Positions 520 to 52,253 are shown, numbered from the stretch's first letter. The stretch is DNA of 64,000 nt from Eutreptiella sp. 'Long Island Sound 2002' (GCA_964036045.1 OZ038378.1:20708001-20772000); one strand, 5' to 3'. Made by a program: numbers and translations. Notes: a model not told the origin generated them from the letters alone.

Positions 520-3500
520 TGCTCTCTGCCTATCTTGCCTTCGTTTGGTAGGGCTGCTTCCATTGGTGCTGGTGCCCAACCATGCGCTCCGGCTAGGACA
601 AGGGCTCCTATACCGCTTGTACAGCATTGACCTAGCCGTGCTCGTGGCGCATATGGTGGCGGAGGAGGATAGCTAGCGAGGGGGGCAACCCTTGGGCGTC
701 CGTCTTTGGCCCGGCGTGAGGCCCAATGCTGGATGCACAAGGTGGACCGCTGGGGGCGGCTAGGCGTGGGGCTGCAGCTCAGACCGCCCATGCGGCCTTT
801 GGATGCGCCAACGCGGTTGCCGCTGCACTGGCATGGGATACAGTGTTTCTACGGGTGCTGCAATGATGGGTGGGGCCCCGACAGTGGTACTTGGGCCAGG
901 CCCAAGCCACGCACGTGGAGCTGGCTCTAGACTTCAAGCTGCACGCGGGCTGCGCCGTGCTGTGGAGCCGGGGCACAAGCTAGTTGGGCTGGTGTTGCTC
1001 CTGCGTGAGCAGGCGCAGAAGCTCTCATTGGATCACACATTGTTTTTTGTGTGCCGGTGAGTTGCTAGGAGGCCAACTGCGCTAGCTCTGCACCATGTTA
1101 GTCCCCTTGGGGGGCTATCGATGCATGGGCTACATTGAGTCGCCGGTCTTCGTGTGCCCCTGGGCCATGGTGGAGCATGTGTGCACGCTGAAGGCGCACT
1201 ATTGGGCCCTCTAGGCGCGACACATCGTCCCCCTTCCTTAGCAACTACTTGCCTGCACGGGGGTGGACAACCCGTATTGCCCTACGAGCGGGAGGAGGAG
1301 GCTGCAGCCGGCGCTAGCGCCGCCATGGCTGCCATGTCTACCGCGTGAGGTGGGACGCTTGGACCCGGCAGGTGAACTGCCGGGTGCCCACGCTCTACGG
1401 GTTTGGCTCACGGCGCCACGAGCGGAGCCGTAGCGGGCACAATGGGACTCATTGCCGCGGGTTGTGCTAAGCCCCAAGGAGCACCCATCACAAGAGGGCT
1501 TATCCGATGATGCGGCAAAGACTACGGCTGCCCGCGGTGCTGGGATGGACGGAGGAGCTGTCGCCGTCCCTCGTGGCGTGCATGTGTGGCAGTGCGTGGC
1601 TTGCCCTGTGCTGGCTACTGGGGTCTATGGGGTCGGGTGATTGAAAGCTGCTGGAGGTTCTGCACCTGTGCCTAGTCAAGTGGCTTCCCTGCTAGTGTCT
1701 GAATAATAGCCGGCCTATCCTGCTGGAGCCCTACATCTTCAGACTTGAGTCGGGGCTTGTGTTCCAGCGTATGCAATTCATAGCCGAGGCTACCGGTTGG
1801 AATGTCTTTTTGTCGTTTGCCTACCGTGCTGCCCTGTCCCCTGTGTTGTGTGCCCTGCCGTGTCGTTGGCTGGTGGCTTTTTGGCTTACCCGGCACGGTC
1901 ACCTATATGTGGGTGACTGGGATGAGAAAGATGCTTTCTGCAATACTGTCCGCCCGGGCTTGGGCGCTGTCTGCTGGTCCTTGGGTATGTTGGAGATTGC
2001 CGAGTGGGCGGAAGGGTTCTTCGGGCGCTTCCGCGTGGGGGTGGTGACCCCGTTTGGGCTCGGCCGCCCGTACCGCATGGCTCATGGGGGGGCTCAGGGG
2101 GACAACATGGGGGTGGGTCTGTACGGGTGTATGGACGGGGCCTGCTTGAGGTTCAATCAAGGAGTCGTTGATGCCGCGGTGGACCCCTCCACCTTTCTCC
2201 CGCTCGCCTCCTCCTTGTGCCTGCGTGCGCCCTGGGATGCCCGAGTGTGGGTCTTGGAGGTGTCCTTCAGTGACGACCGCCGCCTATTTGGCAAGACGCC
2301 CGACGGGCTCAACCGTGTGCTCCAAGCCAACTGCCATGCCTGCTGGGCGGCGGGCGGCACGCCTAATGCGGTAAAGCTGAAAGCTTCAGCCTCCTGTTGG
2401 AAGGTGGCAACATTCGGTATGAGCCAGGGGTTTGGGACTCCGACCTGGGTCCGGTGGAGTGGGAGAAGGAGGGCTTGTCGATGACAAGGATTCCCCTGGT
2501 GCAGTCGGAAGCCCCAACTGACAAGCTCCGTCGCATGGAGCAGCCTCTCCATCGTATCTTGCGTCCGATGCGGTCCCTCCGCCCCTCGTGGATGCTGGTG
2601 CTGCGTATGGTTGTTGCGTACTCCCTATCCTGTGCTAATTTTGTGTTCGAAGCGGTGGCTGTCATGCCTGCGTGGGTGTTGCAGACCCGGCGTGTGCTCA
2701 AGTTGGTGGCCGTGGCTGCCCTGTCACTACCACCTCATGTCCCCAACATCGCGTAGTATGGCACCATTGCGTCCTTGGGCTTTGGCCTGCCCGATGTACT
2801 CTCGCGCTTTTGTCTTCGCCAAGTGTGCAGGCTGCTCCTCGCCCTGAACAACCCGAATGCCATGGCAAGGAAACTACCCAGTCCCTCTGGTCGGTGCCCA
2901 CCTTGTGTACCCTGCATGTGTTTGACTGGTCATGTCATGTCTCGATGCCACTCCGGCGGAGTACTCTCTGTTTGCAGTGTGTGTGGCCACGCTTAGTGAC
3001 GCACCGGTGTGGTGCGAGCGCGGCCCGGCGGAGCTACACTGCCCGGTCGATGTAGTCACGGATGTGTCTCGGGATGGGGGCACGGTGGGCTGGTCGGCGG
3101 TCGTTGTCTCGCCCCAGGGTGCTGTGGTGGAGGCTTGGTCTGGGTGCGCCATGGTAGGTGTGTCGTTGTGGGTGGCCGAATGGTGTGGCAAGGCGCTGGC
3201 ACTGTGGCTCTTGGGTGAGCTGGGGGTGCCCCTGAGCTCCGTCCGCTCCTTCGTGGCGGACAACACGGGGGCCACCTATGGTGAGGACGGCGCCTGTGCC
3301 TCCCAGTGCTCGTGGGTCAACACCGTGCATCTCCGGTACGCCGCCACCTTGCCGCAGAGTGGTGCAGCGGAGATCTATGTACTGGCGCAGCATAACTTAG
3401 GGTCCTATTCGCCGGCGGCGTTAGTGCAAGCAAGGTCTAATGCTCGGGCCAAACAGGGCATGCAAGCTGCCGGGTACGGGTGCGTCCCCTTCCGTGAGTG

Positions 3501-4860
3501 GCTGGGTAGCCACTTCTGCCTCGTGTGGCTTGGCGTGCTAGCCTCCAACCCCTTGGCTGTCCTGGAGGCCTACTATAGTGAGGCTCATGTTTTTATCTCT
3601 GACGTGCAGGGTTGTCTGCTGCGTGGGTCCGCTGTGTCAAGTCTGGCCGTGTCTCACCGCAGTCCCTGTCCGCGGTAGTCTGGCTGCGTACCGCCCTCCA
3701 CCGCCACGTGGAGCCCGAGCCCGTTTTCACATGCCATTTATGCTGGCGCCCGTGCGTGAGTTGGGGGCCCCACCTGTGGTATGAGTGTCCCTGTGCGGTG
3801 TGGGGGGCTCGCTACGCGTTTGCCTCTGCTCTCACCCTGCTCCCGTGCGATGGTCGTGTGTGGCACTCGCCCTACCACTACACTGTGTACAGGAGTGATC
3901 GTGTGGTAGTTTGGGCCCTTGCCCATGCATCTGCCTTCCCGGGTCTGATGCAGTATACCCCCTGTCCTGACGTGTCTGTGACCTGGTCGGGGTTGGTGCA
4001 TTCCCCGCGGGGCCCCCCGGTCGTCCTGGCAGCGGAGAGGGATCTTACCATAGAGTCATATGTGGGGGCACTCGGCGCCTGGTTGGTGTTACCCCCGCGC
4101 CTTTGGCGCGAGCGGCTGCTCGACATGACCCCCCGGGACTGGGGTTGGCCTCATCAGTGGGTGGCGGTGGCACTGGCGGCGTCGCTTGTGCATTGTCTAG
4201 GGCGCCCTATGGGCGCGGTGTCATATGTGGCCTGGGAGCTGTTGGGAGGGGGAGCTGTCCGGTGCCCGTCGGCATGTCCGGTCCTACTGGGCTCCCCCCC
4301 CCCTACATCTACCATCTGTCATCTTTGTTGCCCCCGCCCCCTTGCAGTGCCACAATGGTGCTGCCTACACAGTGGTGCGGGTGGCTGATTCGTTGTATGT
4401 CTCGTTCCCCGAGGCTCTTCCCGCCCCACCCCTCTACTCTGCTCTGACCCTCATGGGTATGGACGAATGGTCCGACACCGCGCCGCCGGTGCCCCCGCCG
4501 CCTGATGGAGTGGACGACACAGCATCGGACTCGGGGGCTTCGTCCCACAGTGACGCTTCCTCGCACAATGACGACCCGCTCGAATGATGCCCGCCATGCT
4601 GCTTTCTCTGTCCGGTTGCTCTTGCTAGGGAGGTCGAGGGCACGGCTGTGTGTGAGCTACAGTGAGTGTGGGGCACCGACTTGAGGCCCCTGCAGTGCGC
4701 GTGGGGTGCCAACTATGGCCCCTGCGGAGTGAGTGGGGCACCGACTCTGGGCCTCTGCAGCGTGACTAGGGGGCCCACTAGGGCCCCTACTGGGTGGATA
4801 CGGGATGCCGGCTTCGGGCCCTTGGGCGTGAAGGGCGTGAACCCCCCCCCTCCTCCACCC
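520..4860 (+). mobile_element. Decayed non-LTR retrotransposon (LINE) with reverse transcriptase, RNase H and C-terminal CCHC finger; broken by stops and frameshifts
   Basis: ORF 1759-2484 has RT motifs YVGDWDEKDAF (D..KAFD-like), HGGAQGDNMG (G.PQG) and VSFSDD (YADD-like, 2266-2277). ORF 2932-3678 has RNase H-like D-V-S-R-D-G-G..GWSAVV, AEWCG..LAL and VADN. CHLC-x9-H-x4-C lies at 3732-3788. A GC-rich 3' region with ~65-bp direct repeats lies at 4660-4770. Boundaries are approximate. Confidence 0.75.
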
Positions 4861-6743: not shown

Positions 6744-9700
6744 ACCGTGCTGCATGGGAGGCGCGTGGCATCCCGAGCCCAAACATGCCCAAGTTCATGC
6801 GGCACGAGTGTTGGACGGACGCTGTGTTCTTGCACTGGCGATTGGAACCCGAAGCATTGCAAGCAGTGTTACCGGTGGGACTTGAACCGCACCTGGACTC
6901 CAATGGGTATGCTCATTTGTATGCTTCCATGTTTGATCGAGTCCCCACAGTATGGATGGTACGAGACGAAACCTAAGTTTGGGGACAAGGAGAACAATGA
7001 GGTACCAATCGGAGTCGATCGGAGAACCTGGTGAAGCCAGTCTCCGGGGGTCGGCGTATCTGTAAGCCTCTACAGGACCAGCTTTGTGGATCTATCGTCT
7101 CTCATTACCTTTTTCCTCCATGGTCACTGTTCTATGTCTTCCACAGCCAACCCCCAGGATAAGTGAGGACAGGAAATGGGCATGGTGTAAGCACAGACAG
7201 GGGTTGGTTGTGAAATGCAGCGCAGGTGAGGGTGTAGGGAAGGCATGGATGGAATCGCCTGTGAGGCAAGCAGGCATGGATGGCAGGGGGAGGGGGGGGG
7301 GGCAAAGGGGGGGCTTTTTGCTTGGAAATGCCCAAAGCTGGTTCAAGTGTCAGTCCGTGTGGTTCCACGGCAAATGGGTTTGGCTGTAACCAAAGCATAT
7401 GGGGGCGCCTTGAGCGCAGTGCGCGCACAGTGCAATTATTTGGCCGTTTGGTCGCACCAAGGACTTGTAGTAAGCACCTCTTGTGGGACACAATAGTGCC
7501 AACTACCACACAAAGTTGGTTGCAAAAGTGGTGTTTTTTCTTTCTGAAGGATGGTGGAGGAGGGTTGTGAAGCCGCAATCCACATTAGTTTAGAGGGATT
7601 TGTGCATTTTAGCACGGTACAAGAGGATTTTTGTTACCTTCTTGCCATACATTTGTTTCTGCATGTGTGCCTTATCAGCTTGCATGTGCGCATCAATCCC
7701 ATACTCTGCGGTATCACTGGGGTATCATTATGTATCCCACGTGTGGAGCAATCAACGAAACATGCAAGGCTGGCCCAATGCCATTGAAGCAAAATGGTGT
7801 GGGCAGGAGATATTAAGGTTCCCACATACAGGCATTTGCCTACACTGCAAGGACACTGGTCCATGGTTGATCCATCATACTTGTTCTGTTGTCTATGTTG
7901 CATGTTTTCTTGGTCTAAGGGGAAGATAAGGAACAACGGTGTGCAATTTTTGGGTGTCCACAGAACAACCCAATTTGTGTTGATTTGGAGGCTTTATCGA
8001 ACAATGTATCTTACAACAGGGCGTATTGCACGCGCATTGCTGGCATTCCGCGGATACCCCTATGCAGATGCCTAGAAGCAAAGATGATGTTGCACAAACA
8101 CCCGGCGCGTCCACTGCAGCAAACAACCATGTGACGGCCTTCGAAGACTGCAGGAAGCCGCGGCACACATGCGAGCAAGCAGCGGTATGCAACAGCTCAT
8201 GCAGCGCACAAGACACTTCTTGGAAGGAGTGACACAAAGAGGTCTGCTGGTCGGCTCGCGGACCACGTGGATCTACCCAAATGTGCCTCCGGCAGGGCTG
8301 TCCTTCATCAGCGGCTTTTTTCTGTTTTAAACAATGGACAGCCCAAGGAAGAGCCCTCGAGGCTGGTGGTGATCCGCCAACAGCTTGATGTAACTAAATG
8401 GGCATTGGTTCGTTCATTAATAACCGACTGCGGGCAAAGGTGCATGTGTCTTCTCTTTACCAGTGACAAACTCCAGATGGATTTGTTGCTGGAGGGTTTG
8501 ACATTTTGCTGTGTGTAGTGCCCGGTCGCCTTTACCATGTCAATGTGTGCATTTGTTGGGTCAAGCGTAAATCAATTTTTCTTTCTGAGGTAAAGGACGG
8601 CCCTGACCTTTGGCTCATCCCCATTGCTGTGGCAAAAGGTACAAAGATGGGGGTCGTTCTGTTGACCGCGTCCAGCTCTATATCACCACCGCAGGGACGC
8701 CTGGATAGGGCTGGTGCTGCTGACGGAGGAGGGCATTCGCCCCATCTTCTGTCCCGACGCTTGGAACTGGGCTGCGATCACCCACGAGGCCGTCAACGTC
8801 CGCACGTATGTGCGGCCCTCGGGGGGGGGACCCCCCGGCATCTACTTCCTGACGCTGGACGCCACTTCCGCCATCGCGACCCTTGGGGCGTTCGCGCTCT
8901 TCCGCCTGCCCTACCGCTTCGCACGCATTGTGCGCACGCGGCGCCGGACAGATGAGGGCGTGGTGCATCACCGCTTCACGGCCCAGAGGGTGCGGTTTCT
9001 GTGGTGGCGGACCTCTTTGCCTTCACTGGATCTTGAAGTGAAGGTTCGTGCATCGGGAATGGGATGGACAGGGGCGTCCTCAAGGAACAGGATTCCTCGT
9101 TTTCTTTTGCTCGAGGAAAGCCATTGGCATGTTGGTGGTTGATCGCTGTTGCCACGCAGCGAATCGCTGGCGGTTGACGATGAGGTGCTGTTGGTGATCA
9201 CCCGAAGGCAGTAATCGGTTGATAGACAGCTGTCCACGGCGGGTATTAGTGCTGGATGCTGGCGCTTGGTGCATGTCCGCCGTTTTAAACTGGTACCATG
9301 TCCAGCAAATGAGGGTGTTGTGTCATGTCGTGTTGTTGGTAATTTCAGGATCTCTCCCAGTACTCACTGATCAGACATTATCAGACCTGTACTTGCACCC
9401 TCTGGTCACACAAATAGCCTCAGTGGGCGAATTCAAGGCAACAAATGGTGCACTGCTAGTCTTGCACACAGGCAGTCATGGAGGCAAAAGGATGATGGAT
9501 TGCCGATAGCATAAGGGTCAGGTCATGCTGGTTCTTTTCAGACCCGTTAGGGTGACCTTTCTGGTGCACTCAGAGTGGGTGGTTTGGAGCAATGGGCTTG
9601 GGTGGAGGGATGACAGCAGGACCTCCCTCCCCTTGTCCAAGCAACGCCTATGTCCAAGCAACACTAGGCGTTCGTTCCGTCAATTTTCGCACCGTGGATT

Positions 9701-10337
9701 TTGGCGGTGCAGTTTTCAATTGGTCCTACTGTGCGGTATGTGTGCTGTCTGATATTGGTTTTGAGATGCATGATGTTCATATTTTGTGTCAAGGAGGCTG
9801 ATTTGGGCATGATGGCATTGGTAGCGTATTTTGCCCCTTGGTTTTCAGAACAGTACAGCATGTCTTTCCGCATGTACCATGCACAGTGTAACGCGTAAGC
9901 AACACCCTTGGCCATTGGTTCCGTCAATTTCTGGTCATTTACCGTTGCTTGGACAGGGGGAGGGGTTACAACCCTGGAAACGCAAATGTCCCTTGCCCGA
10001 GTTTCGCTGAAGAACACGCGTGTACCCGCTCTGTCCGCAGGTGTCAGCCAAGCCCTCAGAGGCCCAGAGGGATGTCAGTGACCCTCGCGGTGTGGCCTGT
10101 GACCCTGGCTTCTTTGTGGACCGCTACTGCCTGTACAACCGCCTGCCATTTCGCAGGGGCTGGTTCCGGGGGACCATTACCCACGCGCCGTGGGTGCTGC
10201 ATGAAGCCCATGTGGTCGCACTGCAGTCGACCTTTGTAGAGTCACATGGCCTGGGCCCGCTGCGGGAGCCCCCGGTGGTGCACTTTGGGTCTGTGCACGG
10301 CCCAATTGATTTCTTTCTGTTTCAAGGCGTGGCTTGA
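6744..10337 (+). CDS. DUF2071/YqjF-family protein, spliced, 5' exon(s) unresolved. Exons 6744-6906, 8695-9043 (alternative donor after 8989), 10041-10337
   Basis: Family motifs occur in order: WTDAVFLHWRLEPEALQAVLPVGLEP, DAWIGLVLL, VNVRTYVR..GPPGIYFLTLDA, FRLPY, FFVDRYCLY, ITHAPWVL. Intron 6907-8694 is GT..CAG and restores GG|G-GAC (NG|DAW). The acceptor CAG at 10038-10040 is phase 0. The acceptor at 6743 is phase 1 and needs an upstream exon. Confidence 0.8.
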
Positions 10338-17904: not shown

Positions 17905-20900
17905 ATGCACGCAGCGTGGCCTGAGGGCGTTTTGCACTGCATCGCCTCGTTCCTGACTGACGAACAACGCGTCGCCGCATTGCAAAGTGTGTGTAGAAGT
18001 TGGCGGCAAGTCGTCATCAAAGGCACCAGAAAGCGTAAATATCAAGATGCTTTGTGCTCAGACAGTGCCTTGGGTCTGTCCGATGACCCGACGTTTGTAG
18101 CGTTACAAATGGAGCGGACACGTCTTTTGAAGCAAAGGTGCAGTTGCTTTCACGTGCCCCAATTGCCCCATTTTGCGGATTGCTTACCGTGACTACACCA
18201 CTGATCTCCGTGCGTACAGTAGTTACAGAGTAGTTACATAGAGCAGCCGTACTGCAAATCAGCGTGCCGCAGTGCGCAGAGTGCCCTCGTTGCACCATTT
18301 TCCGGCCCTCTGGGTGAACTTTCGGTTGGGTGGGAAGACCACCCTCACCCCACACTCCAATCTGCTTAAGCGAGGGATGGGTTGAAAGTGCCCACTGGTG
18401 CCAGTTGGACGTGGGCGTCATGTGGGTAGAATGCTGCCATGGCTGCTGAGCCGTGGCACTGCGATCCGAGGCAGAGCAGGCGGTATGTCCCTTTGGTTGT
18501 CCGACACACCCCAAGCATTGGCCAGATTTTTCACACCCTTTGATGATCTCCCACGCCCGCAGGCACATTTGGCGCCTGGTTTACCACTTTTGATCCATTG
18601 TATCACTTTACAGGGGAAGGGAAAACTCGGGCGGGATATTTTCGTGGGGAAATTCCGTCTTTAAGGAAGGCGACGCGATTTGCCCCTTTATGGGTATCGG
18701 CAGGGCTGTGAAGATGCCAATGGTACTGCATGCCTGGGGCCCATAGTTTTTGGGCAAGTGTTTTGGAACAGCAGATTCTTTCAGAAGTGAACTAATGCTG
18801 CTTTCAGTGGCCATTTGATTTGCCAACCGTTCTGCCTCTGAACGGGGCATGGACTTGCACGTGAAGGTGTGGGTGAGGCACTTGAGGAGCTTTGGAAATT
18901 CCAAGGGTGGCGAAATTTTCCCGGCGAAATGATTCCCGTGCAAAATCCCCCCCCCCCCCCTGTAGTGGTGGCAGGCGCGGTTGGAGCTAATTGCGGAGAA
19001 GCAAATCTGACCCATTGTGGCCCCCCTGTAGACCTACCCCCGCAGAACATTCCAGACATGTCGGCTGCCCCTCTTCCACTCGCAGGGAGTGGCCCTGGGC
19101 CAGTCCATGGCTTGTCTCTGTGAGGATAGAGGGGAGGCTGTTCCAACCATTTTCTGTACCTCAAAGCATCTGTTCATTGGGCCTGTGAAGCAGAGTCTCG
19201 CACTGTCTCTCGCCGCATGACAGTGTCATGCCACAACAGCATGCATCAGAGGTTGCATGTGCACCTGCCCCAAGCGTTGGGCACTCTTTCCGCCGTGGAC
19301 ATACCATACACATCGTTGGGTTGCATGTGGAGTTCGGGAACTTGTCCTGGGGGGGCGTACTGTAGCCTACGGGTGGTTCGGACGTGCGGCCTGCAAGAAA
19401 AAGAAACGCAATCTCGCCCTCTACCTCAGTGTAGTTTACAAAGTACAGACCTGTGCAGCACATCACACCTTTTACAAAGCTCAGCACCATCAACACCAGC
19501 AACACCGGCTCCTTTGGAAACCGGTGCACACGTGTGGCGGTGTGAGTTTCGGGGCAGAGGAAAAGCATCTCCGCACAGTCACTGTACTCACCCCGGCGGG
19601 CTCCCCATGTTGAGACGTGGCATATTTTTTCATCACTGCGCTCGTTGCCGTCAGGGATGAGCTGAAGGAGCGACTCGGGTTGCTGCTGCCGAAGATCCAT
19701 CAGCAGCAGCAGGTCCTGCGAGATTCCTCAGCAATCCGTCTGGAGGAGCACCACCGCCAATTGAAGGAGCTTAGCTCGGTACTGTCGGGTGATGAGGCGG
19801 GAGTGTGCAATGACATTCTGCACTGCATCGACACGCTGGCGGACGTGCAGAAAGGCTTTCTAGGGCTGTTGGGGCAGGCAAAGGCAGAGAAGGACGTCAC
19901 GAAGATCCGCTTCATGGGGGCGCAGGTGTCTCTGCAACTCCATCACTGACCATGGCCCAGGCCACATGGCAACAACAACCGCCTTGAGTAGCTGCTGTCA
20001 CGCCAAGCATAGAAAGCAGAGGACAAAGGGGTCAATATTGATCATGTAATGAGAATCGTGTGGAAAGGGGTAAGAGAAAGGGTGTTTGGCAGTTATTAAT
20101 CGAGGGTTGGCCAACACAGTTGACACACAGTCGTGGTGCAGCCACTTCACACACGTCATCCCCACTTCAGCCCATTTGCACCCAGAGCCACCAAATGACA
20201 TCAGCAACCAGGTAACCAGTGCCGGGAAGTGCTGCATTTTCTGCTGCCGTCATCTGCCACCCCATGTCCTTGCCCTGACACCCACACTGGACACTCGTAG
20301 CAATGGCCAATGGCAGCCATTGGCCTGAGGCAATCTTGTTGCGCTGCGTGGGCACTGCATGCATAATTGGAAAACCCCACTCGATAGGAACCCCTGTAAA
20401 ACCACCCACCAACTCTGTACAGCAGGCAATGTAGCACACAAGCAGGTACAAAACTCTGCTGTCTCCAAATGTGCAACTAGGTTCTCCACCCGTGCATGAT
20501 CTCTCGATAGATATCCAGTCATACATCCTTAAGACTGATACCAATGCCCTCCCGAGCACGGGTCAGTCTTGTCATGCATGACGAGCTGGCTGTAGATGTT
20601 CATTGCATCATGAATGTACTAGTCGCCACATGATTCCCCATCTTGGATTGGGAAACACCGGCCTGAAGGCCTGCACAATGTGAAATCGGCCAGTTCAGCG
20701 ACTCGGCCTAGCACCAATATGTTTCTCCTCTCCGTTCCGTCTCAGCCAAAATCTGGTTTGGTTCATGCGGTGCTGTCTGGCCAACGTGCATCCCCATTCC
20801 GATGTCGAGGTGCTTTTGGCACGAGACGCACGGCGTGCCTACACCCATGTTTTTTTGGCTAGTCCCGGTGCAGAATGCCATCGCACAGCGACCGCCAGCG

Positions 20901-22613
20901 TTGCATGCCCTTTTCGTAGGTAAATTTGGTGAAGGCCGACATCGACGGGTTGCAGAAGCTCCGCAAGCAGATCACAGGAAAGCAGCGCAAGGCCCAGCGG
21001 CTGACGACCAATTTGCGTGCGGCGCACAGCATCAAAGAGGTGGATCCCAAGGACCTCACGGACGTCCCACCGTCTGCCGACGGCTATCAGAAGATCATGG
21101 ATTTCTACCGCTTTACGGTGTGTCCACTCGGAGTGTGGCTGCGTGCAGCCGCATTGCTGTATGCGGTGGGCGATGGGTTCTGAAGGCAGAGTTTGCACGC
21201 AATCCGCGGACTGCCTCGGTCTGTCTACGGGGTCACTGCCAATGCCCTGATGCCCAGGAATTTCTCCGGAATCCAACGTAAGTTGTGCAGAATGCCAGCC
21301 CCATACCCGAGCTTGATCGGATTAGGGCCCACGAGCTCCTACGCCCACCCAACAGGGCGGTCCTTTCACAACGATTTTTTTTTCCCTATCCACTCTGTAC
21401 CGCCCCTTAAGGACCGCCCTCTGGGCTGACAACGTTGATCACCAACTGCCGGCGGTTATTGGCCAAATGTTTGCCCATTTAGTACCGACTGTGGAGGTTC
21501 ATGTGTCTTCTCATTGACAATGACAAACTGTGGATGGATGTACGCAGGTGTACGTAGGTGCTATCGACAACCTGACGCAATCCTGTTGCTACTGTTGTCA
21601 CCCTGAGGGTCCTGTTGTCCTCCTGGTGTTCTCCTGTTCTTCTCCTGTCGTTTTAGGGGCCAAACCCTGTCATCTTCCTGTCGTCATCCTGTTGCTTAAA
21701 CTGCTTGCTGTCTTCCTGTGGCGATCCTGTTGTCATACTGTCATCGTACTGTTATCCTGTCTTCCAGCAACAGCTACATTGAGCTACCCCCGTATTGTAA
21801 CTCACCAAAATGCTTTCGAACATGAAAACCTTCTTCCACATTTAATCTGTCATTTCCTCTGACCAATGCCACTGTTGTAGAATCAGATATTTGAAACGCC
21901 TTGCGCCGCGTCTGTCCCAGATGCACCTCTGCAGCTCCTGCACAAAACAGAGGCACAAACACGGACAAAAAGCGGAAATGCGTGGCACTGTGGCGCGCTG
22001 ACTGGCGCGACGATTGATCTTTGGCTCACGGGGCAATACCCGTTTGGCCAAGCAGCACCTGGGAATCCAGCAGTACTCCGGTGGAAGCCTGGCCCTCACA
22101 TCCAGCCACTTCTAGCTGCCTTTTCTGTCACCATGGTGATCCAAACACATCTTTGCTGCTTCTGGTGCTGATGAAGTGCCTGAAGCAGCCACCGATCTCC
22201 AGCCTTGGGCACGAACCCGCCACCTCTGGGTTGGCTTTAGGGCGGTGTTCAGGGCCCTTGGCTCGCTCTTGGCGCCGTGGAGTAGCTGTTCCTGGTTCAG
22301 CACGTAAGGTGCGCGCTGGGCGCGTGCTGGGGCAAACACCCCCCCTGCTGGTTGAGTGGTCATAGCACCCAGCTCCTGCGGTGCTCCTGTGGTGGTGGTG
22401 TGTGTGTGTGTGTGTGCGTGTGTGTGTGCGTGCGTGTGTGTGTGTGTGTGTGTGTGTGCGTGTGTGCGTGTGTGCGTGTGCGTGTGCGTGTGCGTGTGCG
22501 TGTGCGTGTGTGTGTGTGCGCGCGCGCGTGTGTGTGCGCGCGCGTGTGTGTGTGCGCGTGTGTGTGTGCGTGTGCGTGTGCGTGTGCGTGTGCGTGTGTG
22601 TGTGTGTGTGCGT

Positions 22614-22651
<38 letters not shown>

Positions 22652-23703
22652 TGGTGTGTGTCCTTTTGACAGCACACCTCATCCCGCACCATCATCGTGT
22701 GTAGTTGTGCAGCAGCCGTGTTGGTTGCATCAGCAGTGGTCCGCACGAGGGGGAACGTGCTCGCGGGGTCCATAAGGGGGGGCAGGGCCGTTGCCTCATG
22801 TATGTGACAGCCGTGCTGCGTGCACCAGCACCACCTGAGGCCAATCACCGCATCCAGACAAGCAGACGCGGGATGCGCTCTCAGGCACAACAGCGTCGGG
22901 GGCAGCAGCCACTCTCAGGGGCATGGTCCAGCCTCTTACCCTCTGAAACCTGTGCACAATCCCGTGGTCTTCGGGGCTTGCCTTCTTCACCAGAAAGCCT
23001 CTGGTCAGACAAAACGATGGTCAGACAGGGTCGCCGTGCCTACACAAGGCCCAGGCAGCAAGAGGGGGCCCTAAAAGGTGCGGTGCCGCTGTGCCCATGG
23101 CCCTCAACGCCCGCACAATTCGTCCATGTAATCAGGCACTACACACAGCAAAGTGTCACATCATCCACTAACGACACCGAACTATCGTCTGCTCAACGTC
23201 CGCAGGATGCCGCACTGTACAATTTCGGCCGTGTCTACTCGGGCCCCAATTTTTTCACCGACGTGAAGAGCAACGTTGCGATTTTGGCGGTGTACAACGG
23301 CGAGGCCCAGGAGCTGTACAGCGGCTACGCAGTCAGCGGGGATCGGAACTGCCCTGGCGTACAGCTCACGGCCGGCGCATTCTTCGACGCCATCGAGGCC
23401 ACGGACGGCCTTGGGGAAACGTACTCCCGCACGTTCGACGCGGAGTTCAAGCTCCTCACGGACTTTGCTTCGCAGCACACGGCAGAGCGCTGGGGGGACT
23501 GGAAGGCATGCGGCCACGCGGTGCTGTGGTCGAAGAAGCCGCTCTGCGAGAGCTGCCACGCAGTGGTACACAAGCAGTTCCCTCGGCGCTACCCCAACAT
23601 CGTCCTGGAGGTCATTGTAGGGGATGAGGCGGAGGCAAAGGCGGACAGTGCACCGGTGCCGGACCCCGCCGATGGACATGCGACGTGCGATCATATGGCC
23701 TAA
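17905..23703 (+). CDS. F-box + helical/coiled-coil + BURPS668_1122/SsdA-type (PF14424-like) deaminase protein, ~399 aa. Exons 17905-18137, 19655-19925, 20920-21117, 23206-23703
   Basis: Exon 1 encodes [33 protein letters not shown] (F-box pattern). All three introns are GT..AG with matching phases (2,0,0), and the exons sum to 1200 nt. Exon 4 encodes [45 protein letters not shown]. The start codon is uncertain because the frame is open upstream to 17776 and there is another acceptor at 17798. Confidence 0.8.
22397..22650. repeat. Compound (GT)n/(GTGC)n/(GC)n microsatellite, ~250 bp, in intron 3 of the F-box-deaminase gene
   Basis: Directly visible alternating purine-pyrimidine tract. Confidence 0.98.
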
Positions 23704-25401
23704 GGACGACATGACACATACAGAGGGCTGGGGATTGAGGAGGCGGGGGGTCATCGGTGATCAGCCCGACACTCAGCCAGTGCCGCACGCCACGTCCGCA
23801 TTACCAGAGCGGAGGATCCCGGACAACGGATCAGGTATCCTCCGATTTGGGGCTGACCGCCATCACGAGTGGTGCATCAGCAATGCCCATCTGAGCAATC
23901 ATCTCTGGGGCGGACAGGGCACACGTGGTGCAAGGCAGCAGCGGCCGGAGGGCCACCAGATGGCGGGGTGGCTGTCGCTGATGGCGAGGGTTGAGATTGC
24001 AGGGTCCCTCCTAAGTAGCCCAGGGGGTAGCCCAGGCACCAGAGCGACTTGATCCTTCCTAGGCTCTTGCGCCTGCATATGGTTCCCCCCCACAGAGCGC
24101 GCGCGCGTGCACACACACACAACAGAGGCCCAAGCAGCAGGGTCCGTACAGCCTGGGGCAACTACCTGAAGCTGTGCATGGACAAGGTCGGTCTCGGCAC
24201 TGTCCGTTTGCACGCAGTCTCAGCCCTGACTCGAAAATTTGGTGGTCGTTGCATTGGATGTATATATCAGCCTCTTCTTATGCCCTTGTGGACCAGCGTT
24301 GTTTCTTCGTTTGGGGGGTACCGTAGGGGGTGAAGTCTGGCTGCAACTGGGTTCCGTGCAGGACACTAGTGGCGTGTCTCTCCAGGCGTTCCCACGTTCC
24401 CTGGGAGGCCTGCACAACACATAACCCCCCGTAACCCTCCAAACGCCCACTCCTGACCATCCACGCCTTGCGAACCCCCTGCCCACGTCCCTCGATACCT
24501 AACAAACCCTCTACGAACCCCTCCAAAATCGCGGCGGTTCTAGTCTGCCCTGCGGTTGCGCCCTTCCCCTTGGCACGGGAAAAAAATTTATGTTTGTGGG
24601 GGCGGGGGGGGCTCATTTTCCGGCCCCTCGCCCCTCAAAGGGCTCCGGTAATTGAGGCCCTTTCCGAGCGGCCCACAGGGTCTGTCAGCGGGTTCGGGGG
24701 GGGGGGGGGGGTTACCCCAGCACAACCGTGTCCCAAGGATTCCCTACAACGCACGGATCGTTTTCCAAACAGGCTGCCGTTCTGAGTCAAAACATGCGTT
24801 TGGGCACGGGAGCCCCTGTCCAAGCCCCATACCCCCCCATCCCCCCCGCCCCCATTTGGAGCTACCCGAACGACCCCTCGGCCGTGGGTATTGTTTACCC
24901 GCCCTTATCCAAACTACAGTGCACTTCCGCATTAATACGGCCGCTACGCCGACGGGCAACTGACGTACACCACCGTTCCCGATGGGCATGGGCGTCCTCC
25001 TTCACGCCCATGGGCTGATGTCAGGGACCTGAAGCCTCCGTCAAAGTGCGGTACGTCCGGTCCAACGCCTTTGCACCGTCACTGATACCACCGATGCAAT
25101 TTCCGACCATCAAACAACAGCACTGAAGTGCCTTTGGAGGTCATACTGTGCTGCACACACTGTGCGACAGGCAATCTCTCTGTGCTGCCCGATGCTCCTT
25201 GCGCTCCACATGCACATGGTCGTACGCACTGCGAAGGCCTGGGACTACGGTCTGGAGACATGAGCAGAGGAGGACGTTGTTCCGAGGGACAAAGGACGTT
25301 TCGGGCCCCTTGATAGTACTCTCCATCACCGGCTGCAGCACAAGAACGGTCGCGCCGGCAACCGGGATCGCCGCGATTTCTGGCACAATCTTGTCGGTCC
25401 T

Positions 25402-37015: not shown

Positions 37016-40000
37016 CTACGCCTCCCGCATCGCGTCATCAAGGGACTGGAGGGGGCTGGCGAAGGGGCTTGGCGGCACGGCCGTCCTGATATTGGGGCTG
37101 TGGGTCAGCAGGTGGGCCTTCTGGGCCTCCTGCTGCATCTCCATGATCTTGTCGTGCCACACCGCCAGGGCCCCCATCGAGTACGACATGATGTCCATCA
37201 GATCGGAGCTGATGGCGGTGCTGCGGTCCTTCTCCTTCGCCCCCGGAGGCAGGGCCACCAGGCGATTGGTCGCGGGGCCCGGGGGCGGGGCCTGAGGCCC
37301 GGGATCCATCGGCGCCAACCGCGGCAGAGGCCCACTGGGCGCCGGGCGCCGCCGGGGGCCCGTGGGGCCCATGAACCGCTGCTGCCGATCGCGGGCGGCG
37401 ACCGACCAGTGCGGTCCGGAGTCCAGCGGCGACGGCGGCCCGGAGCCCATGCCGCTCGGCAGTGAGGGCAGGCGGGGCCGCAGAGACTTCAGCGCCCCGT
37501 CGATGCGGCCGCTGTCCAGGACACTGTCCAGCCTCGAGGGGGGGTCCCACGCGCCCATCCGATGCAGCTTCGTGTAGATCGCCGTCCCCAACTCGTCGAT
37601 GATGTCACGCAGGCCCGAGAACGCCTCCAGCTCAATGCTCGTCCGGGCCTCGAACTCTTCCTCCGGAAGCTCCGCCAAAGCGATCTTTGCGTTCACATAG
37701 GCCATCTTCATGGGATCCGCCACGAGCCTGTGCGATCGGAGGGAATCAGCTGCGGCCGCCCGTCACACTACGGAGTCTTAATACACGGCGTGCTACGTGC
37801 CCGACGGCTATTGGCCGACGGCGGTTGGCTGGTCAGCAACGGTGGGGCAACGCAACCGAACGTGGACCCAACCTCCAGCGGGTTGAATGCCTGGGCCCTA
37901 TTGGGGAAGCGGGGCGGTATCACGACCATTCAACCAACTGGTACGGCGGTGCAGATTAGCCGATGGCCGTTGGCACTTAACCGACCGTTGGCGGTTAGCC
38001 GGCGGTTGATACGGAATGTGGCAGGATGGGCTGGAATCAAACGGCCTCCCGGGCGCCCATTCAACAACGAACTACAGTGTCTGGGGAACGGCGGGAGGGA
38101 GTAGGCCACAAGGGCCAGAAGGGAAGCAGGGAAGGCAAGGGCCAGAGACCTGCTGTTGGACAGCGACGCCTCCTCCTTCGTGATATCATTGGACTCGTTG
38201 AGGCTGATTTGGCTCAAGGACAACTGGTCTTGCCCACTGGAAATGGGCGTCAGTCGGCCTGAGGCCGGACGCCCTGCCAAGCCCCTGGCCCCCTTCAGCG
38301 GCGGGGGCTGCGAGTGTAGGCGGCTCAGCTCCGCCCCAATCGCGTCCTTCAGATACTCACGGGCCTGCGTCTGCATCATCGTGATACCGGTCCGCTCTGA
38401 GGCTTCCGCGCGCACCAGCAGCTGCAGGGAGAGCTCCTTGCGGCCCTCCACCACACGGACCATGAGCTGCACGGTCTCATCGCCACACGTCAGACTCAAC
38501 GTCTCCCGCGCCTGTGCAAGACATTAGGGAACGTAGCACACCGCCACGCCGTTGCCGTTGGCTTCGGCTTCGAGCAAGTGCGCACGCGCGCGCACAGTGC
38601 GTGGTCCACCCAGTGGGCGAAAACTGAGAGTCGCGCCGTTTACCAGCCCCATTCAGACCTCATGGGCGAGGCTGACACCTGTTGCTCAAGGGATTCCAGC
38701 TGCTGCTGCTCCTTCCGCTGGATGCGCTGCGCAGTGAGGACACCCGACTCCATAAATTGGGCGTGCACTCGGTCTTCGTGGCCCCGCAGGGCCTGCCGCT
38801 CGGTGTGCTCCAGGTCCATCAGGGAGTTGTACTCGGTGTTGATCTGTGCAAAACTCTCCATCGTGAGCACTCGGTACGTCTCGCTCTGCTCCAGATACTC
38901 GGCGTAGAAGGCATGGTCCTGTGAAGGAGGGAGGGGCTATTTGGGAGAGAGGAGCTGTGAGATAGGCAGGGCATCTACATCCCCACCCACCCACCCACCC
39001 ATCCGGCGACCGACCACCCCCTCGGGGGGCGGGGGTTGGGCGGGTTGAGACAACTGATGTGGTTTGTCTCACACGTACCTGCCCTCACGACGAGACCGAA
39101 AACTGTTTGCCACCGTCAGACGAAGGGTCTGTGTGAAGGGCAAAGGCTGTGTGAGAGGCAGGGGCACTGCGAGAAGCGGAGCTGTGCCGAGACAAGTGTG
39201 AAAGAGGCTGCGTGAGATGCACCTGCTATGCGAATGGCACAGGCTGTGTGGGTGTTGGCACCTTGTGCGCCACTGCACAAGACTGCCAACGCTGTGCCGG
39301 CATTCTATGCCCACTACACGGGACTGCTGCTGCTCCGCAGGCTCTTTGCCCTACTGCACAGGGACGCCTCCGGCCTGCTGGCACCCTGTGTACCGGCACA
39401 GGACTACCACCACCCCGGGGTATCCTGAGCACGCCTGTATATGGGTGTGAGATGCAGAGGTTGTGTGAGAGGCAGAGGTTGTGTGAGAGGCAGAGGTCAT
39501 GTGACAGGCAGGGGCTTTGCGACCTTGGCAATGGCGTCCCATTCCTTCTGCTCTTCGCTGAGGGTCTGTGCCCGGGCAAAGCTCTCCATATCCTCTGTAG
39601 ATCTCTTCTGCTGCACGACCTCCTCCAAGCGACAGCTCCGCATGAGAAAGTCAATGTGCTTCGTAAGGAGGAGGTTGTGGGTCTCAAGGTCCGGGGAAAA
39701 GAACTCCTCGTCCACCAGCTCCCTCAGCGCCATCTCCTGCATCTCCAGCGCCATCAGCTGCAGCCACAGCACCTCCCCGCCCGCCTTCCGGAACTGGTCC
39801 ATCAGCGCCCCGCGCTCGCCCTCTTGCCGCGCGGCCACATCCTTGCGATACGTGCGCTCGTCCTCCGCCAGGCCCTTGCAGTTCGCCATCCACTGCATCG
39901 TCGTGCGGTGCCGCCAGGTCCTCTCGGCGTCCAGCATGCACTTGCGCCGGGCGCACCGCCGCCGGCCCATCACCCCTCGCCACACCCTCTGGACCTGCAC

Positions 40001-41551
40001 GGCCGCTCGGTCCTGCATGCTCAGGATCAGGCGGTGCGCCCGCATGAAGTAGGCGGCCCACAGCTCCGCGCGCAGCCCCGCCTCCGCCACCACCACCCGC
40101 GCCCTGGCCTCGCCCTCCCAATGCTCCTGAAGGGCTCGCTCGGAGGCCAGCGCCTGCGCCACCACGTCGACCCACGCCGCGCCCTCCTCCCGCATCCGCT
40201 GCATCCGCTGCTCCTTCTCGCGCTTGGCCACGACCCAGCGCTCCCGCACCCCAAGTTCCGTGGACCACTGCCGCAGCAGACGGCCCCGCTGCTCGTCCTC
40301 CAGGCGCTCGAAATCCTGCCGCTCCTCCGCCTCCGCGACCTGCGCCTTCGCCCGCCGGGCCTCCGCCAACCGGGCGGTCACCGCCAGGACCTCGCGGTAG
40401 AGCGTCCGCTCGGTGTTCGCGATCATGTGGAACACCGTCTCCTGCTCCTCCTCCAGAAGGTCCCGGAAGTCCTGGTCCTGCGCCTCCAGAAGCTGCGCCT
40501 CCGCCTGCACGCGCAGGCCCAGGGCGTGCGGGGCGAAGTCGCTGTGCCAGGCCGTCAGCTGCTCCAGCACCACCGCCTGACGGGCGTACAACTCGTACCG
40601 CTCGAAGGTGTACAGGTGCCACTGCTGGGCCTCGCGCGTCAGCACCGCGCGGTCCTCCTCCTCCTGCTGCATCACGCCGTACAGCCGCAGCGCCACAAGC
40701 CGCGTCCTCAAGGGGGCCTCCAGCTGCTGCCGTTGCTCGTGCTCACCGGCCGCGATCTCGTCGCGGATGTCACTCTCCAGATCCGAAAGCCGCTTCGCAG
40801 CCCGAGAGACCTGGCGGTCGTTCATGGCCATGAGGAGCTGCAGGAACTCGTGCTGCATGGCCTGCCACAGCTCCTCCAGCTCCAAGTGCCGCTGGTACTC
40901 CAGACTGGCGCGCGTGCGCCGCTCGTTCCCGACGGCGGCGCGGTGCAGCGCCGTCTGGAACGCGTCCATCTCCCGGTCGGCGATCAGCAGCAGGTGCGTC
41001 TCCTGTTCCCTCTGGACCCGCGCCCGCATCTCGTCCTCCTGGTCGATGACCCTCTGCCGCTTCTTAATCATGTCGGCGCGGCGGGCGAGCGTCGTCCGGG
41101 TCCACTCGGCCGAGGCCTGGGCCTCAAGGTCCAGGTGTTGTCGGGCGACCCACTCGTCCCTCGCGATGGCGTCGCGGCAGAGCTGCGCGTAGCTGGACAG
41201 CTCGTGCACCTGCTCGGGCCTCAGGCCTTGCGGCGGCTTCTTCAGGGGGTCGGCCTCTCTGACCCACTTCGGCGTGTGCGCGCGGCCCCGCGACCCCGGC
41301 CGGTCGTCGGCGGGCTGGGGGGGCCACTCCGGGAAGCACAGCCCGCACTCGGCGGTCTGATGCGCCGGGGGGGGCGCATAGGGGACCGGGGCGGCGGCGT
41401 ACCCCGGGAAGACCAGGGGGTTGGGGGTGGGGCCGCCTGCGTTCCAGTGGTACTCCTGGAGGGTCTTGGACGGCTTGTGCACGGGCTCATACCCGAACCC
41501 GCCCTGCTCGCCGACGGCGTGCCAGAACTCGTGCGTGTTGAAGTCCGCCAT
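37016..41551 (-). CDS. Large coiled-coil protein with IQ motif, ~1113 aa. Exons 41551-39524, 38918-38679, 38511-38150, 37727-37016
   Basis: Three GT..CAG introns with matching phases (0,0,2); exons sum to 3342 nt, ending in TAG at 37016-37018. Long E/Q/R/A-rich heptad regions, an IQ-like AAVQVQRVWRGVMGRRR segment and strong GC3 bias. Confidence 0.85.
39440..39510. repeat. Short intronic tandem repeat, 18-bp unit GTGTGAGAGGCAGAGGTT
   Basis: About 3-4 visible copies next to the exon-1 donor of the coiled-coil gene; a related copy lies near 39125-39165. Confidence 0.7.
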
Positions 41552-43587
41552 GAAGTCCGGTCACATGGTGATTGCTGCACGGCAACGCGGGGCAGGGGGA
41601 GGCAACACGGTAGCACGCGAAGGGGTCGTTCGGGATGGGAGGGTGTACCCAGCCCTGTACTCGGCTCATGCTGTTGCATCTGCTGCTGCTCCTGCAGCCC
41701 GACACACGACAAAGACTCAGAAAGTGAAATGCTCGATGCACCCCACATCCCTCTTGCTTGAGCACGGGCCTAGGCCAGGGTAAGCGACGGTCAGAGGGGG
41801 CATTTTCGTGCGCACAGCGCCAATTATTACGTTGTTTATCCCGGGAACACCCCTGAAAACCACCCACCCACAGAAGGATGCATGATCCATTCAAAACAGC
41901 ATGCGGTGCAGAATTCAGGACCCTGGGATCCGTGGCAAGCATTAGACTAAAAAAATAAACCCTGGTGTACCAGGATCCGTGTCTACCGGTGGTGGAAAAC
42001 AGCCGACTTTTCGCACAGCGTGCGCACAGCGCACGGTGTGCTCCCAGACGGGGATCCTGCGCTTGGACAAGGCCAGCACTGGGGCGGGGGTGTGGTGGTG
42101 CAGTGTGATATGTTGCACACCTGAAGGGGATGGGTGGGTTGGGATGTGTGCGCAGACATGGATGACGGACAGCATTGTTGACACCAGCCCAGCGACCCGC
42201 CGAGCGACCAGGCCAACCCAACCATCAACCAATGGACCGCACACAAATTTGCACCAAATTGCCGATTTGCACCACAAGGTTCATGCATTTACTTTTACTT
42301 CTACTTTTTGCACAGAAACCAGTGGCATCTTCACACCGCTTTTGCGAAGCATGTCTTGCACAATTCCTTTTGCTGGTGCACAACCAATGTGCGCCCTTGA
42401 GCATCTGATGTCCAATGGTGTGTTGGTATGAAGCGGGTCATGGGTCTTCCCCTCCCAGTCTTCCCCTCCGCACAATAAAACAGGGCGGGCATACTCCTTC
42501 CCAACAGCTGTGCCGTTCGTGCACCGCATCCAAGAGAAGAACGACGGTGAGTGCTTGCATAAGAAAAGGGTAACAGAGGGCGATCCAAAGACGTGAAACC
42601 AGTGACCGAGGCAACCGGCGGAACTGAACCGTGGGAAATGCACCTGCCCATGGGGCGCCAAGGTGCAGCCCTTGACCCCGACATCCTGTCAACATTTTGG
42701 CCCCCTGAAGTGGGTGCGGGGAGCCGGGCTGGAGTCCCGGGTACCCCAACATACATACCTCAAAGTGATCCCCTCGTCGCACTGCTTATTTCGAACATAC
42801 AGGCTGCAAGATTGGCAAAAGCTGAAAAAATATGTTCCCAACAATACGCATGGTGATGTCTGCCCAAATGGGGTTCCAGCCCTGCCTGAAAAAGACAACG
42901 CAAACGACGATTCGGAATAACCGTGTATGACATGTTCAGTGCATGTGTGCGTGCCGCCTTTTAAGCTCTGGTGCTCAAAAATGCGACCACCTACCACCTA
43001 ACACCTACCACCTACCACCCCCAACCCACACATTTCTGAAATGGCCTTTTCGCACAGATTTCAAAAAGTTTACACATACCCCCCTCTACGGAACGAAATT
43101 CTGGTGCATGGGACAAAAAATTGAAAACCCCTGAAAAAGTGTGAATTTGCCCCGCGTTGGCATATAACGGATGATCCCGAGAGATATGTGGGGCCGCAAC
43201 AGGTCATCAAAGCGCTCCACACATGCACACCCTGGTATGCATATGCAGCAATATTCGGCAGTTCCTTTCAGATGCTGTCCGTCGACGGGCTTGAGCATCA
43301 GTTAACCTACTGACCTTTGGCCGATTGGGTGCCAGCCTCAGAGCAGGGTCCTCAGGTGAAGCTGAAGCGGCCTCAGTATTGTGGAATGTAGGCTAGAGGT
43401 CTTGGCCGACAAAACACGGCCAAACAGGGAACCAGGCAGAGAAGGTTGGTCAGCCTGTACATACAGGGGGGGGAGAGGAAAGAACATCTCTGAACTTATA
43501 CCATGGTCACCTCAAACCAGACATTCCAGTGCAGCAGGAGTCAGGGAGAGAAAAAAATAGACAAGAGAAAAGAGAGCTGCCGGCGCC

Positions 43588-52100: not shown

Positions 52101-52253
52101 GGAGCCCCCGCAGCCGGGCCACAGGAAGACCTGGTACGGTGTGTGCACCGCGGCGGTGCCGGCAATGACCCGCTCTGTGGCGTGTGGACTCACGTGCGGC
52201 AGCCACAGCCCTATCAACAGCACCCACAGCGCTGAGGGACGACACCATGCCAT
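49158..52253 (-). CDS. Intronless type-I membrane trypsin-family (S1A) serine protease with EGF-like and C-type-lectin-like modules and a repetitive cytoplasmic tail, 1031 aa
   Basis: Signal peptide, R|VIAG activation site, catalytic motifs LTAAHC, DIALL and DVCQGDSGGP. Then C-x-C..C..C-V-C..GY (EGF-like) and AWTG..W..W..GQP..CV..DC (CTLD-like), a PS-rich stalk, a hydrophobic TM at 49890-49961 and PPQQMDAYGM repeats. Confidence 0.93.
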   Translation of the reverse strand: MAWCRPSALWVLLIGLWLPHVSPHATERVIAGTAAVHTPYQVFLWPGCGGSIIAPEWVLTAAHCIQNAGIAAQPLWVRANTTKRETNATRGPGIVRYVKQIYVHPEWAGVISLSEGVDIALLFLESPLPLGPYGPTAIPLATARPSAGTALRITGWGSTTAYAFNEASPPFSLPDDLQEATVHVISDATAERYNARKPQVPTCYPKDTTERSVYNYEAFVITGSNGSYPQPDVCQGDSGGPIVLPSASSPVGYEQVGLVSHARGCGDAYIPQYYTSVPYWGQWINDTVTNPPNETVCGGLTCHHTAECVAGKCVCRAGYVKSVGPLADADVAGWYCRRFLFAGEAQSLGARNETLAFYELVPELTTWANATVVDVLQTNLRTLDGRGWLCTFANVYACGEPLYSDATAELQAVAEAVQALVADPAAGVGTAPAFAWTGVRQLGAGVWYYFKAEGVLGERVSLEDLRPLWAAGQPAAGMECVGMYLSGAEAGKLLATDCEALGWAVTQYTIGLPGGPLDAGATDAEKIAYWASKYGAFPFALHTVQNMSCQAMASLVYNGDMGLTDAPPSGVTDLLSLPDYHQAIVETASAAGFQMPILMPWDGADAAVEFLDWGDKVTKAAVTAYFPNPASFDVIGITPEDGKRYSFLMCVDRMVAGSDPDMTFFILTAFNTPNITFRVPGNNATSLEVYSYTDTSSPGVSVVREGGSVVRLSDGDFLVVANHTSAFAGVHVFDAAETTPSPSPNLRPSPSPSLEPSGDESNQSLWGLLALLAIPLCCLCTCLVYLYVKHEEKRRQMIAEVPPAAADLEPEEPPGPDPELDFKEASAADPAPKTLELESDPPVPIDDGVAPGYGMPQPQNGAPYNTAFGFSSAPGNVHDNPDLMSNQSAAPQYIDPMIYSMAQPMDGYDGTQQMDAYGVPPQQMDAYGMPPQQMDAYGMPPQQMDAYGMPPQQMDAYGMPPQQMDAYGMPPQQMDAYGVPQQPMDAYGVPVQPMGTYGVPMQSTTAYNVPPQSMNAPAPPQAMQPANSNWL
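49261..49530 (-). repeat. Coding 30-bp tandem repeat (PPQQMDAYGM)
   Basis: Six near-perfect copies at 49321-49500 plus degenerate flanking units, in frame in the protease tail. Confidence 0.97.

Follow-up and report, generated by a model that had tools for sequence, protein, structure and literature searches.

A PF14424 deaminase gene with an F-box-like N-terminus in Eutreptiella, and its protist relatives

To what use might a eukaryote put a deaminase of bacterial-toxin type that is joined to an F-box? The question is raised by a gene of Eutreptiella sp. 'Long Island Sound 2002', at positions 17905-23703 of a 64,000-nucleotide stretch (GCA_964036045.1 OZ038378.1:20708001-20772000) that we call the window and number from its first letter. 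An earlier note on this DNA had joined four exons into an F-box protein fused to an apparently active BURPS668_1122/SsdA-type deaminase. We find a PF14424 deaminase with an intact motif, belonging to a family of mostly protist proteins that share its helical bundle and linker. Our reading, offered tentatively, is that this F-box-joined gene encodes a nuclear, zinc-dependent C-to-U deaminase of single-stranded DNA (ssDNA), probably directed against viral or transposon DNA.

Exon 4 carries the family assignment. Its match to PF14424 exceeds the cut-off (45.3 bits against 29.6; E 1.3e-11) over profile positions 74-143 of 146 only, and both signatures of the domain, RxxDxExK and CxxC, lie where the earlier note had placed them (Table 1). 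Its assignment to this family stands, as does its claim of an intact Asp/Glu/Cys/Cys motif, with the predicted zinc ligands and the predicted catalytic Glu all present. The R, D and E of the motif are invariant in 55 of 55 aligned rows. RxxDxExK, which defines the BURPS668_1122 clade (PMC3239186, Table 1), is found in helix 2, with helix 79-90 of the exon 4 model following the motif; the CxxC has Ala in place of the trailing Ser of the tabulated CxxCxS, and an insert of ~35 residues separates strand 2 from helix 2 (strand 36-43 to helix 79-90 in the model). Polymorphic-toxin context, meaning secretion domains and an immunity gene, is missing: exons 1-3 hold no secretion domain, and the identified neighbors are DUF2071, trypsin and PITH genes. 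Judged by its domains, the predicted protein is a PF14424 member and not a toxin system. The clade as described consists of bacterial toxins, secreted and equipped with delivery domains and immunity genes, and of two apparently inactive proteins from Perkinsus, its sole reported eukaryote (PMC3239186); a Yersinia CdiA toxin has a predicted PF14424 domain (PMC9424206). The Eutreptiella protein is like them in RxxDxExK of helix 2, CxxC of helix 3, a score over the curated cut-off and a modelled deaminase fold, but it is intron-split, intact and free of delivery domains. Catalytic competence is likely, since the motif is conserved and other PF14424 members are reported to deaminate cytidine in ssDNA, as read out by a base-editor reporter in rice (bioRxiv 2023.05.21.541555).

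The SsdA label proved wrong, because SsdA sits in a DYW-like clade apart from BURPS668_1122, as subgroup BaDTF2 with an SGW motif (PMC7901873); its Pfam family is a different one, PF24120. The present protein has D-x-E and S-G-D and no S-G-W, and exon 4 has no SsdA_C or DYW Pfam match at E<=1. DddB (BaDTF3, a Pput_2613-like subgroup) shares the deaminase fold, as SsdA does, and likewise lies outside PF14424. The AID/APOBEC pattern, an HxE motif in a Helix-4 division fold with helices at the C-terminus, is not seen either, the motif being D-x-E and the modelled domain ending one strand after helix 3; exon 4 has no APOBEC Pfam match, and no exon has a pentatricopeptide repeat (PPR) or DYW match of the kind that marks PPR-DYW editors. 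On structural realignment of the AlphaFold model of exon 4 (predicted local distance difference test, pLDDT, 85.7), DddB ranks at the top (9k3e; Z 9.5, root mean square deviation [rmsd] 2.4, 88 residues aligned), with APOBEC3H (Z 9.2, rmsd 4.2, 99 aligned), APOBEC3G (Z 8.4), the DYW domain of OTP86 (Z 7.6) and a type VI secretion (T6S) deaminase of P. syringae (9c63, Z 7.3) also matched; DNA or RNA deaminases make up 49 of the best 50 structural matches listed. A comparison of such a model with SsdA had been proposed; the deaminase fold was recovered, with DddB and APOBEC3H ranked first. The AID/APOBEC and DYW enzymes resemble this family in being toxin-derived and recruited by eukaryotes for defense or editing (PMC3239186, PMC3417536), and APOBEC3 and DYW are among the nearest solved folds. 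They differ in forming separate clades with HxE motifs, at 6-16% identity in structural alignments; this family would be a recruitment independent of both.

Joining the four exons through three GT-AG introns (1517, 994 and 2088 nt; phases 2, 0 and 0) gives a 399-aa open frame with a single terminal stop and a third-position GC content (GC3) of 0.57, 0.77, 0.80 and 0.80 in exons 1 to 4. The closest homologs fall in a cluster of Euglena mutabilis, from which a euglenid source for the gene is probable. The Trinity protein P0002 of that species (EP00669 P003733, EukProt) is 65% identical to exon 4, and P0006, a 386-aa member of P0002's 90% cluster from a 1570-nt JGI contig, is colinear with the model end to end (identities 24/74, 41/89, 45/66 and 90/137 for exons 1-4), which bears out the phase-consistent model first proposed. 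Exon 3 matches 55 stored proteins by BLASTP, and exon 1 alone matches none at E<=0.01. The F-box stretch scores against P0006 1-50 above 5000 of 5000 shuffles, and its open reading frame (ORF) ranks first among the 1833 window ORFs with P0006 1-50 as query; the remainder of exon 1 is not significant alone against P0006 (1352/5000 shuffles). The N-terminus of P0002 that P0006 does not share is a +1-frame reading of P0006 81-120, identical at 39 of 39 residues (shuffle mean 8.4, maximum 17). The transcript therefore covers the position of the exon 1/2 junction besides those of 2/3 and 3/4, and the deposited E. mutabilis protein looks frameshifted and N-terminally wrong over its first 39 residues. 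We rejected a gene call found in a database (P0001, 301 aa) that continues into intron 3 from exon 4, because the homologs run on into exon 3, whereas the N-terminal part of P0001 has no counterpart in them.

Splicing as modelled is thus very probable by homology. A second strain (P0108 and P0008; single-nucleotide polymorphisms, SNPs, in run X4) keeps both protein ends and leaves the catalytic residues unchanged; synonymous changes number 4 of 8 in exon 1 and 1 of 5 listed in exon 4, too few to show selection. The start codon of exon 1 is probably placed correctly, all five in-frame SNPs upstream being non-synonymous against 4 of 8 within exon 1. Dispersed repeats occupy the introns at 18670-19030, 20330-20650 and 22950-23170, the first reaching ~100 times its flanks in summed contig depth, and a long GT/GC microsatellite lies inside intron 3 (22386-22663).

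To place the protein among its relatives, we searched 1.84 billion representatives with exon 4 and recovered 90 clusters at E<=0.001. Named members range over euglenids, diplonemids, a dinoflagellate, diatom-labelled records and a bacterial genus: E. mutabilis, Diplonema papillatum (DIPPA_01759, P0011), Artemidia motanka (P0013), Gymnodinium catenatum (P0024), clusters under the names Thalassiosira gravida and Proboscia alata, and, for the bacteria, Endozoicomonas lisbonensis and E. euniceicola. An organism-naming cluster was available for 8 of the 25 family proteins looked up; from the tree and from transcript-like contigs, we infer that most of the others are protist. The layout is family-wide, the deaminase being preceded by a linker (GY-x-x-I-x-D-F-Y ... 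F-G ... G-P-x-x-F-x-D ... N-V-A) and the linker by a long helical region. P0002/P0006, P0011, P0013 and P0024 all have this layout, with the motif intact and with no annotation or a hypothetical one; identity to exon 4 is 43-48% for the Diplonema, Artemidia and Gymnodinium members. Among 46 linker-bearing proteins, 39 have the catalytic motif complete, six keep its D-x-E half and end or shift frame before the CxxC is complete, and one (P0065) has lost it. Intact eukaryotic copies with the bundle, the linker and a basic tail are thus widespread; the earlier note had given the Perkinsus copies as predicted inactive, which agrees with the report of them as apparently so (PMC3239186), but had missed these intact ones.

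The family is set apart from the bacterial toxins. Checked against 22 bacterial toxin rows, its profile aligns with all 22 over the deaminase part only, so that none of them matches the linker and bundle of the present protein. A quick tree was built from 68 of 94 domains, the other 26 having no full motif anchor; in it, 45 family rows split from 23 bacterial toxin rows with 99% support in the Shimodaira-Hasegawa-like approximate likelihood ratio test (SH-aLRT), and a 31-row tree concurs. Domestication from bacterial toxins is supported. In both trees the euglenid copies are not grouped with the diplonemid ones. Both also put Endozoicomonas within the protist rows, with monophyly of the protists without it not rejected (approximately unbiased, AU, test, p 0.276); these copies (P0061, P0106 and P0050, from E. 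lisbonensis and E. euniceicola), in host-associated bacteria, have a protist-type bundle, linker and deaminase after a Ser/Thr-rich N-terminus. A metagenome scan added 17 further loci, 13 of them spanning 1.2-2.3 kb and mostly a single uninterrupted ORF; the dinoflagellate spliced leader is absent from the first 80 nt of the 17. Scans of genome contigs and viral contigs and a first metagenome scan gave no family locus, NCBIfam and PADLOC no relevant match, and the ESM Atlas no usable match for P0006, with the P0011 domain leading to bacterial PF14424 clusters. The architecture and this instance of it appear undescribed, recruitment of toxin deaminases by eukaryotes being already known: a literature search, mainly outside subscription papers, found no description of an active protist PF14424 clade or of an F-box fusion.

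Two of the metagenome loci stand out as intronless genomic copies, L012 (2208-3731) and L013 (3743-5164), on contigs of 67% GC; in both, long inserts of low complexity interrupt the deaminase domain. Two further proteins join PPR repeats to the domain. P0043 (310 aa, from a 953-nt JGI contig) has a full-motif deaminase and falls in a subclade with Gymnodinium; P0065 (902 aa, Logan) has eight PPR stretches, a degenerate deaminase and one further domain.

How far does the F-box reach? Exon 1 matches the F-box-like family PF12937 over profile positions 5-35 (26.7 bits, E 4.8e-6), above the cut-off of 24.3, and falls below the cut-off of 20.5 for PF00646 (18.0-19.5 bits, E 0.0027); the claim made for exon 1 thus passes the hidden Markov model (HMM) check through the first family. 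The fusion is, by profile, real but marginal and lineage-limited. As the protein's hallmark, the F-box fares poorly, for no relative scores as one and the only relative with part of the motif is P0006, which keeps the first two helices and not the third. No F-box family was found among 94 family proteins at E<=0.01 (for six of the 94, best five families), in six further cluster members at E<=10, or in 12 of the 17 metagenome-locus ORFs, scanned at E<=1. Many of these relatives are fragments, and 30 have at least 190 residues before the linker. Between exon 1 and the N-terminus of the dinoflagellate-type subgroup there is no homology by hhalign (probability 0.3). Weak matches to MLKL_N (E 0.2-0.6) were rejected. 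On these comparisons the F-box looks like a local addition and not a defining feature of the family.

The chances seem evenly balanced that this lineage gained the F-box as a Skp1-binding element, so that a Skp1-cullin-F-box (SCF) ligase would keep the enzyme scarce; the rest of our model does not depend on it. Nuclear enzymes such as FBH1 helicase and the KDM2A/B demethylases also carry an F-box and a catalytic domain in one chain; their catalytic domains are unrelated, and their Skp1 binding is shown, whereas here it is putative. A Cul1-type cullin is reported from Euglena gracilis and SCF from trypanosomes (PMC12816148). A possibility of somewhat less weight, compatible with any substrate, is a vestigial or incidental F-box, the protein acting as the rest of the family does and independently of SCF. 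The lack of an F-box match in the scanned relatives, the score just 2.4 bits over the cut-off, and the missing third helix of P0006, where pLDDT is 49-58, speak for it; the window motif is complete by HMM, however, and the second strain (P0108) keeps it, with three synonymous changes and one conservative change in codons 1-40. An SCF substrate adaptor, in which the deaminase fold binds nucleic acid or protein, the F-box brings the ligase and catalysis is secondary, is very unlikely. Adaptors usually have the F-box at the N-terminus and a domain for binding at the C-terminus. Inactive eukaryotic copies of the clade have, moreover, been proposed as RNA binders (PMC3239186); yet the catalytic residues are kept family-wide, in members without an F-box.

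Downstream of the F-box, the AlphaFold model of P0006 (pLDDT 80.9) begins with 70 residues of low confidence and continues with long helices that form a bundle (~77-218), followed by the linker and an alpha/beta domain. Structural matches to the bundle are all generic three-helix bundles (a designed protein is best at Z 11.2, and SPX, BAG, spectrin and CNOT3-N reach Z 9-11), and we claim no specific identity for it.

The classical nuclear localization consensus K[KR]x[KR] occurs in 11 of 31 N-terminal tails of the family, against a shuffle mean of 0.93 and a maximum of 4 in 1000, and a looser basic pattern, picked after viewing the sequences, in 18 of 31 against 2.1 shuffled. This family-wide enrichment makes the RKRK of exon 1 a candidate localization signal, and nuclear import through the basic tail is probable. 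An organellar RNA editor of PPR-DYW type is by comparison highly improbable. Perkinsus copies have predicted transit peptides (PMC3239186), PPR fusions occur in the clade, and dinoflagellate editing enzymes are described as unresolved (PMC12787238), but N-termini here are basic tails and, in Eutreptiella, an F-box. DIPPA_01759 is also missing from the entries listed in three Diplonema mitoproteome supplement files (PMC12699882), where two control deaminases were found, and mitochondrial deamination in Diplonema is assigned to PPRD1 (bioRxiv 10.64898/2026.09.04.749523).

Within the nucleus, ssDNA is slightly favored over RNA as the substrate. The main rival to our reading, which we consider unlikely, is a site-specific nuclear RNA editor performing a housekeeping C-to-U edit in tRNA, snRNA or mRNA, its aromatic linker reading one RNA structure. 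Such a role would suit a linker and pocket that distant lineages have strongly conserved, and the fusion of two clade members (P0043, P0065) to PPR repeats, which are RNA-binding modules; in the related DYW clade, RNA editors occur beside an enzyme that acts on DNA (PMC7901873). The sole tested PF14424 activity that we found, however, is on ssDNA, and the patchy distribution, together with the separation of the euglenid from the diplonemid copies, is more easily explained by transfer than by an ancient housekeeping role.

Nuclear-type basic tails would also suit an enzyme that deaminates host 5-methyl- or 5-hydroxymethylcytosine and so feeds repair or a hydroxymethyluracil pool, a reading that we regard as quite improbable. 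Euglenozoans and dinoflagellates, both rich in the family, carry hydroxymethyluracil-derived bases, and the window is depleted in CpG (odds 0.70; introns 0.62) and TpA (0.58) with an excess of TpG/CpA (1.33), as expected from CpG methylation. CpG loss is, however, expected from spontaneous decay of methylated CpG, thymidine hydroxylases already account for hydroxymethyluracil, and family members also occur outside these two groups.

If the product is an ssDNA deaminase, as we favor, the basic tail would admit it to the nucleus, D312, C348 and C351 would bind zinc, and E314 would deaminate cytosine in exposed ssDNA. The linker is predicted to give the first helix and a loop that shape the substrate pocket, and the bundle may serve as an arm that binds a partner or restrains the enzyme. 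Through the F-box, SCF would limit the dose of the enzyme, as an accessory control dispensed with elsewhere in the family. APOBEC3 suggests by analogy that defense against viral or transposon DNA would be its most economical use.

Several observations weigh against this proposal, beginning with the narrow F-box score and partial motif already described, to which may be added that P0006 1-80 has no Pfam F-box match at E<=10. The window RKRK fails the strict localization pattern. Structural matches to the exon 4 model point to a deaminase fold and not to a substrate, Z values of 7-9 identifying none; Foldseek gave no match at E<=0.001, and the chains first listed for the model are AID/APOBEC. 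Asp as a zinc ligand is a prediction, because PDB sequence searches found no solved PF14424 relative. The family is well conserved, exon 4 being 38-53% identical to the non-euglenid matches among the first 45 rows, unlike defense mutators, which evolve fast. SNPs of the second strain have no C-to-T skew (21 transitions and 19 transversions among 40 listed). No joint at the three introns appeared in any of the eight sequencing runs covered, of ten listed: six (X2-X7) cover the introns and behave as DNA, X8 has no match, and the RNA run X1 (share 0.15) offers one 150-nt piece of exon 4 (23557-23706) plus intron-repeat pieces, which are no evidence of expression. Finally, the rice reporter result concerns unspecified PF14424 members.

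A broader scenario, a long shot in our estimation, is that of a hitherto unrecognized nuclear mutator of DNA common to marine and freshwater protists, drawn from bacterial toxins separately from AID/APOBEC and DYW and passed among euglenids, diplonemids, dinoflagellates and other algae. In the euglenid lineage the F-box would act as a tripwire: the enzyme would be broken down as long as no virus took over or overloaded SCF, and once one did, it would accumulate and hypermutate the invader's DNA. The dinoflagellate-type PPR-fused branch would edit RNA, by a second, DYW-independent route; P0043 and P0065 are possible analogues of PPR-DYW enzymes, dinoflagellate editing enzymes being described as unresolved (PMC12787238).

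Dozens of conserved, intact protist copies whose tails are of nuclear type suggest one more domestication of a toxin deaminase, in organisms whose antiviral defenses and RNA-editing enzymes are poorly known; two apparently inactive Perkinsus proteins had been the sole eukaryotic members reported (PMC3239186). One member, DIPPA_01759, belongs to Diplonema papillatum, a species in which gene silencing is in use (bioRxiv 10.64898/2026.09.04.749523). A deaminase with a predicted Asp ligand, suited to eukaryotic nuclei, would also be a candidate for base-editor mining.

Table 1. Coordinates of the deaminase gene, its motifs and the other features of the window
Feature	Position	Strand	Content	Basis or remark
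Exon 1	17905..18137	+	aa 1-78, with the F-box-like motif and the basic patch; helical bundle begins	Frame, Pfam, P0006 match
F-box-like motif	17920..18015	+	aa 6-37	PF12937 over cut-off; first half kept in P0006
Basic patch RKRK	18028..18039	+	aa 42-45; candidate nuclear localization signal	Loose pattern only
Intron 1	18138..19654	+	GT-AG, phase 2	Contains high-copy dispersed repeat, ~18670-19030
Exon 2	19655..19925	+	Helical bundle	P0006 identities; long helices in AlphaFold model of P0006
Intron 2	19926..20919	+	GT-AG, phase 0	
Exon 3	20920..21117	+	Final bundle helix and first linker half	P0006 identities
Linker motif GY-x-x-I-x-D-F-Y-R	21082-21114	+	Exon 3	
Intron 3	21118..23205	+	GT-AG, phase 0	GT/GC microsatellite, ~22386-22663
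Exon 4	23206..23703	+	Remaining linker, PF14424 deaminase domain, short acidic tail, stop	
NVAI	23272-23283	+	Exon 4 motif	
RxxDxExK (RTFDAEFK)	23428..23451	+	R309, D312 (predicted zinc ligand), E314 (predicted catalytic), K316	
PLCESC	23539..23556	+	C348, C351 (predicted zinc ligands); CxxC at 23545-23556	
Retroelement-like frames	700-4200	+	High-GC3 frames with stops, resembling a decayed retroelement	Two pieces scanned, no Pfam match
DUF2071 (COG2071) split gene	8675-10202	+		Pfam E 3e-18
Coiled-coil gene, large	37016-41560	-		Three pieces scanned, no Pfam match
Trypsin-like protease	50196-52241	-	Signal-peptide-like start, long C-terminal extension	Read as pieces, with in-frame stops between them at ~52001, 51788, 50918
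PITH-domain gene	57664-63800	-	Divided by a long intron	

The remaining features of the window (Table 1) flank the deaminase gene on both sides. DUF2071, the domain of the split gene upstream, is a mostly bacterial family.

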